Shown: positions 548 to 50,424 of the stretch, piece after piece
How the letters are laid out: each line of letters begins with the position of its first letter
Numbering within the stretch: position 1 is the first letter of the stretch
Source: an uncultured Candidatus Saccharibacteria bacterium
Lineage (GTDB): Bacteria; Patescibacteriota; Minisyncoccia; Phycocordibacterales; UBA9973
DNA length: 64,000 nucleotides
NCBI GenBank assembly: GCA_964553015.1
Contig: CAZKJE010000002.1
Location: 14,175-78,174, forward strand
Direction: 5' to 3'
Translations under genes and position numbers: made by a program
Notes under the pieces: model-generated
Told to the model about the DNA's origin: nothing
Database searches by the model: none
Seen by the model: only the letters and a program-made list of their open reading frames with translations

Positions 548-2140
548 GTGGCTTTTGCCAAAATATACTCAGCGCAAGTAAATTTACTTACCGGAGCTAT
601 CGTAACTATAGAAGTGGATCTCTCCCGAGGCCTGCATTCTTTTAGTGTCGTCGGCCTGCCGGACAAAGCAGTCGATGAATCTAAAGACAGGGTATCGGGC
701 GCGATAAAGAATTCCGGTTTCCAGTCCCCGAAGGCAAAAAATCAAAAAATAATTGTTTCTCTTTCACCGGCCGACTTAAAGAAAGAGGGGCCATTTTTTG
801 ATTTAGGAATTGCCATCTCGTACATGAAAGCAGCGGGAGATATTAAATTTGATTCCGAGAAAAAAATATTTTTAGGCGAGCTAGGCTTGGACGGCACACT
901 TCGCCCTATCCGCGGAGCTTTGCCTTTGGCGCAGGAAGCCAGACGGAAAGGATTTGAAGAAATATATCTGCCGAAAGAAAATGCCTCCGAGGCGGCCTTG
1001 GTGGAAGGTATTAAAATTTTTGGCGCTGAAAGTTTGCAGGAAGTCGTGGAGCATATCGATGAGTATAAAAGACCCCCTCTGTCCGATAAAAATAGGACAT
1101 CTCCCCCTTCGCAGGGGGCGAGGAATAAAATTCCGGTCCAGCCGCAGACAAAAGTAAATTACAAAAAAGAAACAAAGGGCGCAGACTTTTCTGATATTCG
1201 CGGACAGGAAGGCGCCAAGCGCGGGCTCGAGATCGCGGCCGCCGGCGGGCATAATATAGCGATGTATGGCCCGCCCGGCACAGGCAAGACGATGCTGGCC
1301 CGGGCTTTTTCGCAATTGTTGCCGGATCTGCCAATTGATGAAGTACTTGAGCTCACGGGAATACATTCTGTGTCCGGCAGCACGCAAGGGGAGCTTGTGT
1401 GCTTTCCCCCGTTTCGCGCCCCGCACCACACTTCTTCTTATGTTTCTATTATCGGCGGGGGAACGTATCCAAAGCCAGGAGAGGTTACACTCGCGCATCG
1501 CGGCGTTTTATTTCTAGACGAGTTTCCGGAATTTGAGAAGAGGGTTATAGAATCTTTACGGCAGCCGCTTGAAGACAATATCGTTTCCATTTCCCGCGCC
1601 AAGGGCACAGCAGTCTTCCCTTCAAATTTTATTTTAGTGGCCGCCATGAATCCCTGCCCGTGCGGAAACGCTGGGAACAAACAAAAGGCCTGCATCTGCA
1701 AGCCGTCCGATTTAGACAGATATAAAAGGAAACTTTCCGGTCCGATTATAGACCGTATTGACCTCTGGGTTTCAGTCGGCAACGTGGATTATAAAAAACT
1801 CGGCGCAAGTGACGATGAGCGGAACGCAGAGAAAAGTGAAAAAATAAAAGATAGAGTTACCCTAGCCAGAGAAATTCAAAAAAAGAGATTTCAAAAATTT
1901 ACAAAAAAAATCAGCACAAACAGTGAAATGAATGTGAAAGACTTAGGCACGATGGCAAAACTCGATGCAAAAGTTCGCGAACTCTTAGACAACAGTGCCG
2001 AAAATCTAGGCCTGTCCGCTCGCGCCTATCACCGCGTAATAAAAATAGCCCGCACTATTGCCGACTTGGAAAATTCTGAAAACGTAGAAGCGAATCATAT
2101 CTTAGAGGCCATTCAATATAGGCCAAAAGTTAACTCATAG
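548..2140 (+). CDS. comM: YifB/ComM-family Mg-chelatase-like AAA+ ATPase (competence protein ComM)
   Basis: 530 aa, GTG start. N-terminal Lon-like domain, Walker A GPPGTGKT and C-terminal ChlI-like domain. Carries an in-frame GC-rich hairpin insert at about 1101-1123. Confidence 0.85.
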   Translation: MAFAKIYSAQVNLLTGAIVTIEVDLSRGLHSFSVVGLPDKAVDESKDRVSGAIKNSGFQSPKAKNQKIIVSLSPADLKKEGPFFDLGIAISYMKAAGDIKFDSEKKIFLGELGLDGTLRPIRGALPLAQEARRKGFEEIYLPKENASEAALVEGIKIFGAESLQEVVEHIDEYKRPPLSDKNRTSPPSQGARNKIPVQPQTKVNYKKETKGADFSDIRGQEGAKRGLEIAAAGGHNIAMYGPPGTGKTMLARAFSQLLPDLPIDEVLELTGIHSVSGSTQGELVCFPPFRAPHHTSSYVSIIGGGTYPKPGEVTLAHRGVLFLDEFPEFEKRVIESLRQPLEDNIVSISRAKGTAVFPSNFILVAAMNPCPCGNAGNKQKACICKPSDLDRYKRKLSGPIIDRIDLWVSVGNVDYKKLGASDDERNAEKSEKIKDRVTLAREIQKKRFQKFTKKISTNSEMNVKDLGTMAKLDAKVRELLDNSAENLGLSARAYHRVIKIARTIADLENSENVEANHILEAIQYRPKVNS

Positions 2141-2160
2141 AGTTATCCACATCTGGCTTG

Positions 2161-2189
2161 TTGACAGTGAACGCTCGTTCACTTATACT
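2161..2189 (+). promoter_or_regulatory. sigma70-like promoter TTGACA-17-TATACT with embedded LexA operator
   Basis: TTGACA at 2161-2166, a 17-nt spacer, TATACT at 2184-2189. The spacer is the perfect inverted repeat AGTGAACG-CT-CGTTCACT. Confidence 0.6.
2166..2183. promoter_or_regulatory. LexA (Cheo/SOS-box-like) operator GAAC-N4-GTTC
   Basis: AGTGAACGCTCGTTCACT is an 8+8 perfect palindrome matching the Gram-positive-type LexA box CGAACnnnnGTTCG. It overlaps the promoter spacer upstream of the lexA operon. Confidence 0.6.
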
Positions 2190-2278
2190 AATTAAGTCGC
2201 AAATACCCCTACCCGGCCTCTCCCTAAAGTAGGGGGAGGAGAAAGGAGGGGGTAAATTATAAAATTAAAAACAAAGCT

Positions 2279-2479
2279 ATGAGTCAAACACAATATTTAA
2301 AAATGCTGGAGAGAGAAATCCAAGCAATAAATAAGAGGATAGATCTTAAAATTCTCAAGGGTCAGAATTATCACAAAGAGGCGATAGAACACAAGCTCCT
2401 AATTAGGAAAGTGCGATATCATTCCCGAAGTAACTTTTTGCGTAAATTTTTTCCCACTTTTGCGCAGTTTTCTTTTTAG
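2279..2479 (+). CDS. small basic helical hypothetical protein (66 aa), first gene of the LexA-box transcript
   Basis: ORF sits between the LexA-box promoter and lexA. No SD sequence, no recognisable domain. Confidence 0.3.
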   Translation: MSQTQYLKMLEREIQAINKRIDLKILKGQNYHKEAIEHKLLIRKVRYHSRSNFLRKFFPTFAQFSF

Positions 2480-2506
2480 TTTCTTTCTAAAAGATAAACA
2501 AAATAA

Positions 2507-3076
2507 ATGATAAGAAATCCCCATCAGATAAAAATAGAATCTTTCTACGGAGAGAATAAGAGGATGCCGACGTATTCGGAAATGATGAAGCTCTTCGGCT
2601 ACAAATCCAAGAATGCGGTTTTTAAAGTCGTGGAGAAATTGATTGACGCAGGGCTCGTCGCCAAAGATCATCTCGGCCGGTTAGTACCCACACAATCTTT
2701 TGGCGAAGTTCCGATGCTTGGGCTGGTGACTGCCGGTTTGCCTGCAAGTGTGGAAGAAGAGCTCGCAGATACTGTGAGCTTGGACGAATTTTTAATAGAA
2801 AAGAAAGCTTTTACATATATGCTAGAGGTGGACGGGGATTCTATGATAGATGCGCACATAGAAAAGGGGGATATGGTTCTCGTCGAGAAGGCAAACCAGG
2901 CTAAAGATATGCAGATAGTCATCGCCGAAGTGGATGGCGAATTTACGATGAAATATTTTAGGCGTGATGGGAATAAATGTTGGCTCGAGCCGGCCAACAA
3001 AAACTACAAACCGATCTATCCGGAACATTCTTTAAATATAAATGCAGTGGTGAAAGCGGTGATTAGGAAATACTAA
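2507..3076 (+). CDS. lexA: LexA repressor (S24 peptidase)
   Basis: N-terminal wHTH. Ala-Gly cleavage site in VTAGLP. Ser/Lys dyad in GDSM ... FTMKYF. Strong similarity to the LexA C-terminal domain. Confidence 0.85.
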   Translation: MIRNPHQIKIESFYGENKRMPTYSEMMKLFGYKSKNAVFKVVEKLIDAGLVAKDHLGRLVPTQSFGEVPMLGLVTAGLPASVEEELADTVSLDEFLIEKKAFTYMLEVDGDSMIDAHIEKGDMVLVEKANQAKDMQIVIAEVDGEFTMKYFRRDGNKCWLEPANKNYKPIYPEHSLNINAVVKAVIRKY

Positions 3077-3091
3077 ATAAGATAGGAAATC

Positions 3092-3118
3092 AAAAAATCC
3101 CCCGAATGGGGATTTTTT
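3092..3118. terminator. bidirectional intrinsic terminator between lexA and hup
   Basis: AAAAATCCCC-GAAT-GGGGATTTTT hairpin flanked by A and T runs between two convergent genes. Confidence 0.7.
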
Positions 3119-3166
3119 GATTTCCTAATTTCTCTCGAGAGAACCCCACTTGGCGGGGCAGGAATA

Positions 3167-3439
3167 TTACGCAACCATATCCTTCAAACCTTTTGCAGGT
3201 CGGAATTTTGGCACTTTCTTTGCAGCCACTTTGACTTGCTCCCCAGTCTTTGGATTGCGAGCCATGCGAGCAGCGCGAGATTTTACTGAAAAGATTCCAA
3301 AGCCGGCGATCGATACTTCCTGTCCCTTTTTCAAGGTCTGGATGATAGCATCAAACATTCCGTCTACGAGCTCTTCAGCCTGCACTTTTGTGCCGCCTAG
3401 TTTTCCGTGTACCCATTCAGCTAATGCTTGTTTATTCAT
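3167..3439 (-). CDS. hup: HU-family DNA-binding protein
   Basis: 90 aa. GFGIFSV ... RNPKTGE arm motifs of HU/IHF. Confidence 0.9.
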   Translation of the reverse strand: MNKQALAEWVHGKLGGTKVQAEELVDGMFDAIIQTLKKGQEVSIAGFGIFSVKSRAARMARNPKTGEQVKVAAKKVPKFRPAKGLKDMVA

Positions 3440-3530
3440 AATGTAAAAAAATTATTTTTGTAATTCTTTCGACCTTTTAACCCTTATTTTTGATACCTAT
3501 TCATTATATATCAAGGGTTTTTTAGCGCAA

Positions 3531-7523: not shown

Positions 7524-8565
7524 AACAGCAAAATTAATTCTGAAAGACGGTACTATTTTTGAGGCAAAAAGTTTCGGCGCTTCAAAATCTACTGCCGGCG
7601 AAGTGGTTTTTGCCACGGGAATGACCGGCTATCCCGAAGCGCTGACAGATCCATCCTTCAAGGGACAAATTTTAGTAATGACATATCCCTTGATCGGGAA
7701 TTATGGAGTTCCTAAAAAAGAAGACTGGGAATCGGACAAGATCCAAGTTTCCGGGCTTGTAGTGTGTAATTACATAGATACGCCGTCGCATCATGCAAGC
7801 GAGATGACTTTGGCCGAGTGGTTCAAAAAAGAAGGCGTGCCACTTCTTGAGATAAAAGACACAAGGCTGCTTACAGAAAAATTACGGGACGAGGGGGCAA
7901 CACTAGGCAAAATAATTATTGGAAGCAAAAATGTTAATTTTGCAGATCCGAATTTGAGAAACTTGGCTGGAGAAGTGAGTACGAAAGAAATTTATTTTAT
8001 GGGCGAGGGAAAAGATACGATTGTGCTTTTGGATTGTGGCGCCAAGAGGAATATAATTAGAAGCCTTGCAGAAAGAGGGCTTAGGGTTGCAGTAGTTCCG
8101 TGGAATACCGATGTAACCAAATTAGATTTTCAATTTAGCGCGGTAGTGATTTCAAACGGCCCCGGAGATCCAAAGAAAGTAACCGCTACTATCAATAATG
8201 TTAAAAAAATTATTGCTAAAAAAATCCCTACGCTGGGTATTTGTTTGGGAAACCAAATTTTAACTTTAGCCATGGGAGGCACAACGTATAAAATGAAATT
8301 CGGGCACCGAAGCCAGAATCAGCCAGTAGTGCAAACGGGTACAAATAAGTGTTATTTAACAACCCAAAATCATGGTTTTGCAGTTAAACAAATTCCCAAA
8401 AATTTCAGACAATGGTTTCATAATGCGAACGATAATACGAATGAGGGAGTTATTCATGAGACCCTGCCATTTATGTCTGTGCAGTTTCATCCGGAAAGTA
8501 CTCCGGGACCCGTGGACACTGATTGGGTATTTGATTATTTTTTGAAAAAAGCTGATGAAAAATAA
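7507..8565 (+). CDS. carA: carbamoyl-phosphate synthase small (glutaminase) subunit
   Basis: CPSase small-subunit N-domain plus class I GATase (GICLGNQ, HRSQNQPV, QFHPE). Confidence 0.9.
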   Translation: MKTENRTAKLILKDGTIFEAKSFGASKSTAGEVVFATGMTGYPEALTDPSFKGQILVMTYPLIGNYGVPKKEDWESDKIQVSGLVVCNYIDTPSHHASEMTLAEWFKKEGVPLLEIKDTRLLTEKLRDEGATLGKIIIGSKNVNFADPNLRNLAGEVSTKEIYFMGEGKDTIVLLDCGAKRNIIRSLAERGLRVAVVPWNTDVTKLDFQFSAVVISNGPGDPKKVTATINNVKKIIAKKIPTLGICLGNQILTLAMGGTTYKMKFGHRSQNQPVVQTGTNKCYLTTQNHGFAVKQIPKNFRQWFHNANDNTNEGVIHETLPFMSVQFHPESTPGPVDTDWVFDYFLKKADEK

Positions 8566-18957: not shown

Positions 18958-19707
18958 ATGCGGCGCAACATAATCGGTTGTCTCGTTGTTCTCTTGGTCT
19001 TGGCGTTCTCTGTTAACGCACAAGACTCTGAACTCTTAACGCTTGACCGTCGTCCAGACATTTTCTCAACGAAGATGGCGGTCCAACAGGGGGTGGGCGG
19101 AGTTTTCAACTCCGTTCAAATTCCGACTAGACGTCGCGGAGCACGTCGCCCTGTGCCAACTCCCACTTATATGACGCTCGAAATGGGAATCGGAGTAGTG
19201 GGGCCTGACGAGTTCGGGAAGTACAAGGTTCCTTTCTCCATTTGGTTTCCCGTTCCGGAGGGAACCACGTTCACAGGTTACTCTGTGGATGTGAATGGGA
19301 ACAGGAGTTACCTTGGGCACAACACGGTGACCAGCGAAACTGCGAACCTCGGTTGGGCGGGTAATCTCTGGGGTCCATATACGGGAGGTGCTCTCCTGCC
19401 AGAGAGCATCGTAGGGTTCGAGGTTGAGTTTACTGGTAACTTCCAGACCTACGGTATGCATACTCCGGCACCAGGGGCTACCAGACCTCCAGTGATAGTG
19501 GACGTGTACCCCAATGGGTTGCTCTTCCTCAAGGAGACGTTCGCAGTTCCACCGGTTATCTCTCTCAACGGAAGAGGCCATCCGATTCTGAACGGATGGG
19601 TGACTCCGATGGAGGGATATACGGGACCGGACGTTGTCGTAATTAGGTGCACAGGCTTTCCTCGTTCGGAGTGTCTGACCCAGGTCGTCGACATTCCGAC
19701 CTCATAA
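18958..19707 (+). CDS. secreted hypothetical protein with foreign (GC-rich) codon usage
   Basis: Start refined to the ATG after SD AGGAGGG. Signal peptide MRRNIIGCLVVLLVLAFSVNA. About 55% GC with G/C-ending codons (aag, gag, ttc, aac, tac), unlike neighbouring genes. Confidence 0.7.
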   Translation: MRRNIIGCLVVLLVLAFSVNAQDSELLTLDRRPDIFSTKMAVQQGVGGVFNSVQIPTRRRGARRPVPTPTYMTLEMGIGVVGPDEFGKYKVPFSIWFPVPEGTTFTGYSVDVNGNRSYLGHNTVTSETANLGWAGNLWGPYTGGALLPESIVGFEVEFTGNFQTYGMHTPAPGATRPPVIVDVYPNGLLFLKETFAVPPVISLNGRGHPILNGWVTPMEGYTGPDVVVIRCTGFPRSECLTQVVDIPTS

Positions 19708-19797: not shown

Positions 19798-19865
19798 TAC
19801 CAAAGTCTGAGTTATCCACATGCTTTCTTGATATTTTGTTTACTTTTTAAAGTATAATTGAGTAT

Positions 19866-39070: not shown

Positions 39071-39145
39071 TTGATATTAGTAGCAAAATAGACTTATGAA
39101 ACTACAAGAAGGATAATAGCGTAACTAAACCATAAAGTCAATTTG

Positions 39146-39535
39146 TGGAGATGGGGGAAATTGAATCCCCGTGCAGAAGGTTTTTGCAAAGAAGTCTACA
39201 TGCGTAGCGCGCTTTTTGTTTTAAATTAAAAAATTATGAAACGCGCCAAATATTTTTTAACCGAGTTCTTTTGTTTTGCGAGAGCGTCAGAACAGGCGTT
39301 CAAGCTATCCCGATAATGTTATGCCTCGTCTTATATATCGGAAGTCTATAAGAGAGACACCACCTCAGGCTTACGCGAAAGATGGAGCGAAAGCGAGCGC
39401 ATTACCGAAGTAAGGCGAACGCATTGCTGTGAAAGCTGATTTTGCAATTAGCTGTTGAACGAATTTTTACGAGATTACGTTCATTCTCGGCATGCATCAA
39501 TAACAAATGGCCAACTGTCTATGCCTTGCATCCCC
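39146..39535 (-). ncRNA. ssrA: transfer-messenger RNA (tmRNA)
   Basis: 5' end GGGGAUGCAAGG...GCAUGCCGAG...CUCGUAAAAA shares the PK1-region strings with E. coli tmRNA. 3' tRNA-like end with T-arm GGGGA-UUCAAUU-UCCCC and acceptor CAUCUCC-A pairing with the 5' GGGGAUG. Lies next to smpB. Predicted tag ORF is GCA AAA ... GCG UAA. Confidence 0.75.
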
Positions 39536-44624: not shown

Positions 44625-44829
44625 ATCTAATCCAGCTTATAGATACTCGGTTTCTGGAAGTCGCTCTTGTGTTCTCTTTTTCGGTGTTTTCTTTTGCGAA
44701 ATTTGCAAAAAAATGGCGGTTATCCACTTGCTATGGGTGTGTAAAATGGATTATTATTATAGTCCAACCAAGCTGAACAAAAATTATCTAAAATGTTCAC
44801 TTTTAATCCAAAAATAATTTAAAAAACTC

Positions 44830-47749: not shown

Positions 47750-49957
47750 TTACTCGAAGTGAAACTCTCCGGCTTTGGTGCGGACTTTTTGTTTTAGGAG
47801 AGGATATTTACTTAGTTCGGGGTCAGATTCTATCATGCTAATAGCTTCAGTTCTAGCCGCTTCTACCATTTTTATATTTTTTATAGCTTCCATGCCGAGA
47901 TCAGTGATGCCCCACTGCTTTGTACCGCCAAGCTCTCCGGCGCCTCGGAGTGTGAGATCTAGCTCTGCCAATTCAAAACCATTTTTTGCAGTCTTGAGCG
48001 CTTTAAGGCGGTCTACGGTTTTTGCGCTTTTGGCTTCAGCAAAAATATAACAATATGCCTGATGCGAACTTCGGATCACCCGTCCGCGGAGCTGATGCAA
48101 TTGGGCCAATCCAAAACGCTCCGCACCTTCTATGATAATTATTGTCGCATTTGGAACATTCACTCCGACTTCTACCACGGACGTAGCGCATAAGATATGT
48201 ATCTTGCCTTCGGTAAATTCCTGCATTACCTCTTCTTTTTTTTCTCTGCTCATCTTGGAATGAAGTACGCCTATTTCATACTCTTTGAACACTCGCTCTT
48301 TTAATATTTTAGCTTCAGCTACGGCAGATTTTACATTTAAAGCCATTTCTTTTTCAGGATCAGGCTCAAAAATTCGCGGGCAGATGACGTAGAGCTGTCT
48401 ACCGGCCTCCAATTCTTTTCTGATTGCTTCGTAAGTGTTAGTCCTCTTGTCCGGAGTAATAATCTCTGTAATTATTTGTTTTCTTCCTACCGGCATTTCG
48501 TCTAAAAGCGACAGATCCAAATCTCCGTATATCGTGAGCGCGAGCGTGCGGGGGATAGGAGTTGCGGTCATGGATAGCAGGTGCGGAGCGATGTTATCTT
48601 TGCGCACTAACTTTCTTCTTTGTGCTGTGCCGAAGCGATGCTGTTCGTCTATCACCACAAGTGCAAGATTTTTAAATTTAACAGTTTTTTGAATGAGCGC
48701 ATGTGTACCGATAAGTATAGGTATCTCGCCGTTTCCGATCCATTTCAAAAGTTGTGCTCGGGAAATTGTTGTCCAGCTTGCCCCGTCCTTGGCGGGACCG
48801 ATTGTTTTTGATGGAAATTTTCTGCAGCCACTTCCAGTGATCAAGCCTATGTTTATCGGCAAATGCTTGAAATATTCTATGAAAGATTCAAAATGTTGCG
48901 TTGCTAATATTTCTGTCGGCGCCATGTATGCCACTTGCAAATTACCAAAATTTTGTGGTTTACCCTGGGTGTAATCGAAGGGCCTTTGCTGTACTGTCAC
49001 ATAGCTTGCAGTCGCAGCTACAGCAGTTTTACCGGAGCCGACATCGCCTTCGAGTAATCGCGACATCGGAAAATTCTTTGCCAGATCAGCAAGTATCGTT
49101 GCGATGGATTTTTCTTGTGATTTTGTCGGTTTAAAAGGGAAGCGCTTCAGAAATTCTTCTGCACTTTTCTTTTCAGGTTTTATTTGAAAAGATTTATTTT
49201 TTCTATATTCAAATTTATCATGCTGGCGTTCCAGCTGAATACAGAATACTTCTTCAAAAGCGAATCGTTTGCGTGCCGACTGCGCATCGGCTTTATTTTT
49301 CGGTTTGTGTATCCAAATAAGCGCGGTTTTCAGAGTAGGCAAATGATATTTTTTTAAAATTTCGGCCGGAATATAATCTTCAATATTATCCAAAGTTTTT
49401 TCTTTAAATATTTTTTCAATTGCGTGGTAAAACCATTTGGAAGTGATACCTCGCGTCTCCGCATAAATTGGATAAGACAGACCCTCCCCCAACCCCTCCC
49501 TTCGCAGGGCGGGGCTTTTAAATAATGTGTCGTGCGAATCTATCGGCATATTCGGCAATTTTTCAAATTCCGGATTAGCAAGATACATGCCATTTTTGCC
49601 TTGCGTGACTTTGCCCGTCAGCTTCACATTTTCGCCGTCATGGATCATTTTTGCCAAGTAAGTCTGATTGAACCATGTGATTTTTATTTTTCCAGATAAA
49701 TCTTCTATTTCGCCTTCGCCCATGGGCATTTTTGAACGAAATCCTTTTTTGGTTTTCAATTTTGAAACTTTGCCATATACAGTAGCCATATCTCCGGCAA
49801 CTAATTCAGCAATATTCTTTACCTCGCTGATATCGCTGTAGCGGACAGGGAAGTGAAACAAGAGATCAGCCACAGAAAAAATCTTGAGCTTATGCAAAGC
49901 CCTTTTCTGGCTTTCATCCAGCCTGAATTTTAGTTCAAGCTTATCGCTTAAATTCAT
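47750..49957 (-). CDS. recG: ATP-dependent DNA helicase RecG
   Basis: Wedge domain plus helicase motifs (GDVGSGKT, DEQHRFG). Start refined to MNLSDKLELKF, since the longer ORF overlaps pilA. Carries an in-frame GC-rich hairpin insert at 49481-49515. Confidence 0.85.
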   Translation of the reverse strand: MNLSDKLELKFRLDESQKRALHKLKIFSVADLLFHFPVRYSDISEVKNIAELVAGDMATVYGKVSKLKTKKGFRSKMPMGEGEIEDLSGKIKITWFNQTYLAKMIHDGENVKLTGKVTQGKNGMYLANPEFEKLPNMPIDSHDTLFKSPALRREGLGEGLSYPIYAETRGITSKWFYHAIEKIFKEKTLDNIEDYIPAEILKKYHLPTLKTALIWIHKPKNKADAQSARKRFAFEEVFCIQLERQHDKFEYRKNKSFQIKPEKKSAEEFLKRFPFKPTKSQEKSIATILADLAKNFPMSRLLEGDVGSGKTAVAATASYVTVQQRPFDYTQGKPQNFGNLQVAYMAPTEILATQHFESFIEYFKHLPINIGLITGSGCRKFPSKTIGPAKDGASWTTISRAQLLKWIGNGEIPILIGTHALIQKTVKFKNLALVVIDEQHRFGTAQRRKLVRKDNIAPHLLSMTATPIPRTLALTIYGDLDLSLLDEMPVGRKQIITEIITPDKRTNTYEAIRKELEAGRQLYVICPRIFEPDPEKEMALNVKSAVAEAKILKERVFKEYEIGVLHSKMSREKKEEVMQEFTEGKIHILCATSVVEVGVNVPNATIIIIEGAERFGLAQLHQLRGRVIRSSHQAYCYIFAEAKSAKTVDRLKALKTAKNGFELAELDLTLRGAGELGGTKQWGITDLGMEAIKNIKMVEAARTEAISMIESDPELSKYPLLKQKVRTKAGEFHFE

Positions 49958-49971
49958 AAAACCATTATACC

Positions 49972-50424
49972 CTATCTGGTCAGTGTAATAGATTGGCCAA
50001 GTTCCGCATTTGGAGCGGCTATAGTGTAGCGGCCATTTGAATCCACTAATACAGTGTATTGCGTGTCTGCCGCTGTTCCCGCAGTCAATCCAGCTCCGCC
50101 GGGGTCCATAGGAATTACTGAAGGAATATATGTAGGTACCAGGCAGCTCAAGTCCATATTCCCTGCGCCGGTTCCAATATTTTCGGCAGTGGAAGTTATG
50201 GTAACGCCGGCACAAGTAAATATACCTTTGTTATCGGCAAGATTTTGCCCGATTGCATTTAAAATAGTCTCGACGTTGCTAATGCGTTGGCTGTTTCTCG
50301 CCTGCGCAAACTGACGAGCGGGATTTATAGCTACTACCACGATAGATGCCAATATCGCGATAATACCGATCACAACTAAAATTTCAATAAGCGTGAAACC
50401 TCTTTTCCTCGCAACTTTTTTCAT
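49972..50424 (-). CDS. pilA: type IV major pilin (PilA-like)
   Basis: Canonical prepilin leader MKKVARKRG followed by FTLIEILVVIGIIAILA. 150 aa. Confidence 0.85.
   Translation of the reverse strand: MKKVARKRGFTLIEILVVIGIIAILASIVVVAINPARQFAQARNSQRISNVETILNAIGQNLADNKGIFTCAGVTITSTAENIGTGAGNMDLSCLVPTYIPSVIPMDPGGAGLTAGTAADTQYTVLVDSNGRYTIAAPNAELGQSITLTR

Follow-up and report, generated by a model that had tools for sequence, protein, structure and literature searches.

A palindrome filling the promoter spacer of a lexA operon, a probable LexA operator in a Candidatus Nomurabacteria relative

That LexA represses its own gene by way of a GAAC-N4-GTTC palindrome is textbook knowledge, and in Firmicutes and Actinobacteria lexA (dinR) is autoregulated at its promoter through the Cheo box or SOS box (CGAACRNRYGTTYC; TCGAAC-N4-GTTCGA). 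A palindrome with this core lies between the -35 and -10 hexamers of the promoter ahead of lexA in the DNA studied here, a stretch of 64,000 nucleotides to which we refer as the window. The question that this locus raises is whether the palindrome is the operator of LexA, as an earlier note on this DNA had proposed, the operator of another regulator, or not an operator at all. The source organism is a relative of Candidatus Nomurabacteria (Patescibacteria), and homologues of its LexA at 73-92% identity are annotated as Candidatus Nomurabacteria or Paceibacterota.

The promoter and the transcription unit that it heads

Across positions 1900-3500, the top promoter-like site in a promoter scan was TTGACA-17-TATACT at 2161-2189, with a score of 11/12; it is present in the sequence exactly as the earlier note had read it. 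Judging from the promoter spacing, transcription of the lexA operon probably starts at ~2195-2197. The 17-nt spacer between the hexamers is GTGAACGCTCGTTCACT and had been described as a perfect palindrome. The inverted repeat is indeed perfect, since a repeat finder returned the arms AGTGAACG and CGTTCACT (2166-2173 and 2176-2183) as 100% complementary and 2 nt apart; however, the 8-nt left arm takes in the final A of the -35 hexamer, and the conserved arms are only 7 nt long (GTGAACG/CGTTCAC). Within this 16-bp repeat, which we call the box, the GAAC-N4-GTTC core is GAACGCTCGTTC at 2169-2180. The core also bears out part of the earlier description of the box as Cheo type, but the flanks read TGAAC and not CGAAC. 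Compared with the Cheo consensus C-GAAC-RNRY-GTTY-C, the flank is T in 81/81 sequences (TGAAC...GTTCA), and the centre, GCTC/GAGC, lies outside RNRY. Because the core is shared and the consensus flanks and centre are not, we regard the box as a variant, putative operator and not as a Cheo box in the strict sense.

Counting within the window does not by itself set the box apart, as GAAC-N4-GTTC has 2 matches in the 64 kb versus 0.64 expected, and 13/100 shuffles reach 2, which is not significant. The second match, at 39290-39301, was considered as an operator and rejected because it lies within the tmRNA gene. What places the box beyond chance is comparison: all 80 related loci described below have it at the same promoter position.

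Table 1. Features of the lexA operon and of other genes in the window to which the text refers
Feature	Position	Strand	Basis or remark
comM	548-2140		Upstream of the lexA operon
Putative DnaA box, GTTATCCACA	2142..2151	+	Perfect DnaA-box consensus TTATCCACA at 2143-2151; 9 nt 5' of the -35 hexamer
-35 hexamer TTGACA	2161..2166	+	Promoter scan 11/12; TTGACA in 80/81 sequences
Putative LexA operator GTGAACG-CT-CGTTCAC	2167..2182	+	Perfect inverted repeat; core GAAC-N4-GTTC at 2169-2180
-10 hexamer TATACT	2184..2189	+	Promoter scan; TATACT in 76/81 sequences
Leader RNA hairpin, C-rich/G-rich stem	2204..2254	+	Minimum free energy -30.3 kcal/mol, z = -3.0; ~82-nt 5' leader
Conserved 66-aa protein gene, first in operon	2279..2479	+	Predicted two-helix hairpin; orthologous ORF in 80/80 loci
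lexA, 189 aa	2507..3076	+	Probable N-terminal winged helix-turn-helix, and S24 self-cleaving peptidase domain; TIGR00498, Peptidase_S24
Bidirectional intrinsic terminator hairpin closing the operon	3083..3127	.	20-pair stem, T runs on both strands
HU gene, convergent	3167-3439	-	Pfam Bac_DNA_binding
recJ	30682		
comEC	32891		
tmRNA gene	39143-39535	-	Rfam RF00023, 119.6 bits; contains the only other GAAC-N4-GTTC of the window
Ribonucleotide reductase gene, class II	44830		
recG	47750-50215	-	

The gene that begins 317 nt past the -10 hexamer encodes LexA. Its product scored 118 bits against the NCBIfam lexA equivalog TIGR00498 (cut-off, 110.95; model positions 17-201 of 203), contains a Peptidase_S24 domain (E = 5e-27), and aligns with residues 23-196 of the solved E. 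coli LexA, through both the winged-helix and the catalytic domain. Ala76-Gly77 and Ser112, which correspond to E. coli A84-G85 and S119, are invariant in 87/87 aligned LexA sequences, and in the nine sequences inspected at that position, the dyad residue Lys149 lines up with E. coli K156. The N-terminal domain is more divergent. The Pfam LexA_DNA_bind model (PF01726) matched it with E = 0.12, short of significance, and pairwise alignments with the E. coli and T. maritima LexA structures enter it from query residues 18 and 9, respectively. The recognition helix, SKNAVFKVVEKL, is unlike that of E. coli LexA, for which the reference was confirmed by structure alignment, and presumably also unlike that of B. 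subtilis LexA. Since the helix differs from both, operator specificity is not readable from the protein.

The public gene call for LexA (P0001, 170 aa) begins at Met20 and thus loses 19 N-terminal residues (2507-2563). These residues are conserved and contain helix 1 of the DNA-binding domain. Because nearly all homologues are 188-189 aa long with this N-terminus included, we kept the long 189-aa form.

The earlier note was also right that a 66-aa ORF lies between the promoter and lexA, but missed that it is a real, conserved gene of the operon. An orthologue occupies this place in 80/80 loci, at ~62-100 aa and mostly 64-73 aa; the longest calls begin at upstream in-frame ATGs. Only 27 nt separate the small ORF from lexA, which leaves no room for a second promoter, and we therefore treat the two as one operon; by gene order, the small protein appears always to be co-transcribed with LexA. 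Its consensus is MSQxQYLKMLEREIQKINKKIDLKIL.G..Y.KEAR.HKLL..KVRYH, with the N-terminal 47 residues strongly conserved. All 297 homologues found are annotated 'hypothetical' and have no Pfam domain; clustering at 50% identity gave 289 representatives, and the 150 listed are all stand-alone proteins of 34-108 aa. AlphaFold predicted helices at residues 3-27 and 32-61 (pLDDT 85.6). A search of the predicted fold against the PDB returned generic helical hairpins only, none significant (best E = 0.8), and sequence searches gave no match in Pfam and nothing significant in NCBIfam or PHROGs.

The sequence element of the leader hairpin listed in Table 1 (CCCCTACCC.GCCTC.CCCT...) occurs once in the window and is found in about 8/81 promoter regions, that of the window included (the others are L001, L004, L010, L012, L014, L021, and L060), and inspection of the remaining loci revealed differing self-complementary stretches at the same position. 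An Rfam search of the leader gave no family match.

Conservation of the promoter block and the likely partner of the box

The comparison set comprised 80 species-level genome loci (L001-L080; 487 kb), or 81 sequences when the window is counted. All 80 loci carry TTGACA-(N0-1)-GTGAACGNNCGTTCAC-N-TATACT at 240-405 nt 5' of lexA, so that the operator candidate overlaps the core promoter of the LexA-encoding unit in every orthologous locus. The core GAAC-N4-GTTC is present in 81/81 sequences, and the 14 arm positions are the same in 80/81; the exception, L019, has the first G replaced by A. The centre of the box is CT in 48 sequences, AG in 29, and other in 4. CT and AG are reverse complements, and such a swap is the pattern expected of a site that is read symmetrically by a dimer. 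The columns of the box carry 2.0 bits, compared with about 0-0.5 bits in the flanking columns, and the sequence farther upstream of the block cannot be aligned across the 80 loci, because different genes sit there. The promoter and box thus form an unusually well-conserved block, although the switch that they suggest is of an ordinary kind.

The association of the box with lexA extends beyond this clade, over a LexA identity range from 36% to 86%. Two metagenome contigs (L261 and L240) encode LexA proteins 59% and 54% identical to that of the window and have the layout DnaA-like box, TTGCAT-N1-box-TATACT, small-ORF homologue, and lexA. Two others (L087 and L167; GC 0.51-0.55), filed as viral contigs, encode LexA proteins of 36-37% identity and have no small ORF. 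Immediately before lexA, they carry TTGCGC/TTGCAA-N1-GTGAACGNNCGTTCAC-TACAAT (L087, 2770-2830; L167, 370-440), and the 16-bp box again fills the spacer.

These contigs bear on the strongest of the alternatives, which we nonetheless consider improbable: that the palindrome is the operator of some other regulator, for example the co-transcribed 66-aa protein acting as a self-repressor, while LexA binds another motif, such as a direct repeat. The small protein is always encoded in the same operon and, within the Nomurabacteria set, co-occurs with the box as tightly as LexA does. The divergence of the LexA N-terminal domain would fit such a reading, as would the passage of PMC7739468 that cites a study of the Patescibacteria SOS network among LexA cases with evolved direct-repeat motifs, from which it follows that some Patescibacteria LexA proteins may bind something else. 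However, L087 and L167 retain the box at their lexA promoters in the absence of the small ORF, which makes LexA, and not the small protein, the likely partner of the box. The predicted two-helix hairpin also has no recognizable DNA-binding fold, and in Gram-positive phyla the core of the LexA operator is well established as GAAC-N4-GTTC. The recurrence of the box at the promoters of lexA genes whose products are only 36-59% identical to LexA of the window makes self-repression by LexA the best reading.

A further point against a dedicated small-protein operator is that the box also stands 5' of a DinD homologue. It was found by a metagenome scan for the exact box, run with the pattern BN-box-NV, which skips lexA-type promoters and any promoter with the same-register -10. 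Most matches were high-GC chance matches, and a few AT-rich contigs were informative. Three of these share a second family of box promoters (L271, 3700-4870; L218, minus strand, ~1030-1045; L289, minus strand, ~664-679). In L271 and L218, the promoter reads TTATCCAC(A/C)-N1-TTGCA/ATTGTA-GTGAACGNNCGTTCAC-TATATAAT, whereas the upstream box of L289 is degenerate (CTTATTTGCT). The promoter in L271 and L218 drives two genes, of which the first encodes a zinc-ribbon protein of 57-59 aa. The second gene of L271 encodes the DinD homologue (NF008573, 362 bits versus a cut-off of 242), so by homology the box there precedes a classical damage-inducible gene, dinD; that of L218 is Fic-like by a weak match (E = 3e-4). 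The L289 promoter lies directly before a gene that we read as RhuM-like, with no match in NCBIfam. As regulon members, the 16-mer matches in viral contigs were rejected, since they are mostly high-GC chance matches and phage iteron arrays.

Less probable still is that the block is merely a very strong, selected promoter, with a palindrome that has no protein partner and is kept by spacer shape or by recent common descent. The -35 and -10 hexamers are indeed as invariant as the box, and the 80 loci all come from one order-level clade. Promoter spacers normally vary, however, whereas here 14 positions are fixed, the centre is either CT or its reverse complement AG in most sequences, and the adjoining intergenic DNA cannot be aligned. 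Promoter-like sites before the genes at 18958 and 19866 in the window have unrelated spacers, and distant lineages with different -35 and -10 hexamers retain the box.

The viral contig L151 carries, at 7880-8150 and within a 321-aa ORF that we read as a replication initiator, two DnaA boxes and a tandem array of five GTAGTGAACGA(G/C)CGTTCAC-like repeats; the repeats look like phage origin iterons in which the same 16-mer has an unrelated role. This resemblance is what favours the weakest alternative, that the DnaA box and the GTGAACG..CGTTCAC repeat at lexA form a replication element (an origin or iteron-like element) and not an operator, which we consider very improbable, since at lexA the box and the DnaA box each occur once, are placed exactly relative to consensus -35 and -10 hexamers, and are followed by an operon, with neither a tandem array nor an AT-rich unwinding element, in an arrangement tied to lexA in every genome.

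With these alternatives weighed, the autoregulated lexA operon promoter that the earlier note proposed gains support from the equivalog score of LexA, the conservation of the block in 80/80 loci, and the co-occurrence of box and lexA down to 36% LexA identity, all of which are consistent with LexA binding to the palindrome at its own promoter.

A putative DnaA box and the search for other candidate LexA targets

A feature of the lexA promoter that the earlier note missed is a conserved DnaA box upstream of the -35 hexamer. The 9-mer TTATCCACA is exact in 76/80 lexA loci and has 1 mismatch in the other 4, and its distance from the -35 hexamer is 7-10 nt across the loci, regardless of the upstream gene. 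DnaA may bind here. In the window, GTTATCCAC occurs 4 times versus 0.23 expected, and each copy lies between genes and points in the same direction as the gene that follows. DnaA can act on transcription, and in E. coli its classical targets include the gene for ribonucleotide reductase (PMC8203912). In three of four relatives (L307, L308, and L310), a similar DnaA-like box is semi-conserved before the promoter of the reductase operon. The uvrB promoter region of E. coli is co-regulated by LexA and DnaA (PMC6015884), and it shares with the present locus a DnaA box and a LexA box side by side in the promoter region of an SOS gene. In our case, the pair is located at lexA itself, with a single consensus putative DnaA box 7-10 nt from the -35 hexamer, and is found clade-wide.

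The other copies of GTTATCCAC(A/T) in the window lie at 18820-18829, before a gene for a secreted protein; at 19811-19820, before that for a 936-aa surface protein; and at 44719-44728, before that for the class II ribonucleotide reductase.

As candidate members of a wider regulon, comM, recG, recO, and recJ had been put forward. Of these, comM, recJ, and recG were located in the 64-kb window, whereas recO was not; none of the three has an upstream box, even at 3 mismatches, and at <=3 mismatches there is likewise no box in the window before comEC or the ribonucleotide reductase gene, nor beyond chance anywhere else in the window apart from lexA. The four loci that cover the reductase and recG genes in relatives (L307-L310; 89 kb) contain no box either. 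Within ~640 kb of Nomurabacteria DNA, the only box is that of lexA. The 487 kb of the 80 loci hold only 2 other core matches, compared with ~6 expected, and no further site with <=3 mismatches rose above the shuffled expectation in the 64-kb window and these 487 kb. The DNA covered, which includes about a tenth of the genome of the window, does not demonstrate a multi-gene SOS regulon in that genome or in the Nomurabacteria lineage.

The ribonucleotide reductase gene was considered as a LexA target and set aside, as neither the window nor the four relatives have a box ahead of it. Between its putative promoter and its start codon, at 44774-44799, lies an inverted repeat, TGAACA-N14-TGTTCA, whose half-sites resemble the LexA box but have the wrong spacing; in relatives, the reductase gene abuts the gene upstream.

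A model of the switch and its relation to known SOS systems

Positions 2142-3127 very probably constitute a self-contained, LexA-autoregulated transcription unit, with LexA bound at the palindrome in the promoter spacer. The observed architecture of the sequence, the identity and catalytic residues of LexA, the structure of the operon, the conservation of the block, and the co-occurrence of box and lexA fit the following model. The near-consensus sigma-70-type promoter would transcribe the hairpin leader, the gene for the 66-aa protein, and lexA, and transcription would stop at the strong terminator. A LexA dimer on the 16-bp palindrome would exclude RNA polymerase from the face that it requires, and its own operon would stay off. 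Upon DNA damage, RecA would stimulate the self-cleavage of LexA at Ala76-Gly77 by the Ser112/Lys149 dyad, and the promoter would become free. Synthesis of the small protein and of new LexA would follow, and this LexA would close the loop by repressing the operon again. The DnaA box 9 nt 5' of the -35 hexamer probably adds a second input, the replication status. Binding of LexA to the box, RecA-dependent induction, and the roles of DnaA and the small protein are what we infer. RecA-dependence is taken from the SOS response in general, since tblastn with E. coli RecA found no recA in the window or the comparison loci searched.

A broader reading, which we offer tentatively and consider on balance doubtful, is that the DnaA box, the LexA box, and the obligatory 64-73-aa protein travel together as a lineage-specific SOS module. 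The lexA operon would then integrate replication status with damage, the small protein would be the principal and perhaps the only conserved SOS effector of these very small genomes, and the classical repair genes would stand outside LexA control. In such a module, the small protein might be an inhibitor of division or replication or a modulator of RecA or LexA.

With the lexA (dinR) genes of Firmicutes and Actinobacteria, the operon shares the GAAC-N4-GTTC palindrome, here a putative operator, over the core promoter of lexA itself, as well as an S24 self-cleaving domain with its Ala-Gly site and Ser/Lys dyad. It differs in that the flanks of the box are G-T-GAAC-G and not C-GAAC, in that the centre is CT/AG, in that the box fills the spacer exactly, and in that lexA is the second gene, behind that of a lineage-specific small protein. 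Several bacteria have small SOS-induced proteins whose genes adjoin lexA or are controlled by LexA, such as YneA of B. subtilis, SosA of S. aureus, SidA of Caulobacter, and DinI and SulA of E. coli. By analogy, the 66-aa protein would resemble these in being short, in the position of its gene beside lexA, and in having its expression tied to LexA de-repression. We detected no relation in sequence or fold, however; the 66-aa protein has no transmembrane or LysM segment, and its gene is co-transcribed upstream of lexA, not divergent from it.

The SOS network of Patescibacteria has reportedly been analysed by comparative genomics by Sanchez-Osuna, Barbe, and Erill in 2017 (Environ Microbiol 19:3465), and the core finding may therefore already be in print, in part or in full. 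With such a network on record, its main value is to confirm that the Nomurabacteria clade retains a standard damage switch. That study is cited in PMC8565304 and PMC7739468, whose citing passages give no motif. It concerns the same superphylum, but the box of the window is palindromic and not, as in the direct-repeat cases among which the citing passage of PMC7739468 places the study, a direct repeat. Literature searches that were not aimed at the obligatory small protein or the pairing with a DnaA box found no earlier description of either.

As a putative clade-wide operator, GTGAACG-NN-CGTTCAC provides a defined seed for regulon reconstruction in hundreds of uncultured genomes. The uncharacterized small-protein family would be the first product of LexA de-repression and, in organisms whose genomes are minimal, is a candidate SOS effector; the pairing of DnaA box and LexA box would tie the SOS switch to the control of replication. 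The operator, the small protein, and the DnaA-box pairing are all approachable without culturing, by means of purified proteins and reporter fusions.

A gene unrelated to this operon also drew our attention in the window. The 1166-aa product of 56948-60448 is a class I tRNA synthetase (Ile/Leu/Val/Met type) whose catalytic domain comes in two stretches, and between these, at residues 524-611, it has a match to the histidine-phosphatase family (PF00300), an unusual insertion.
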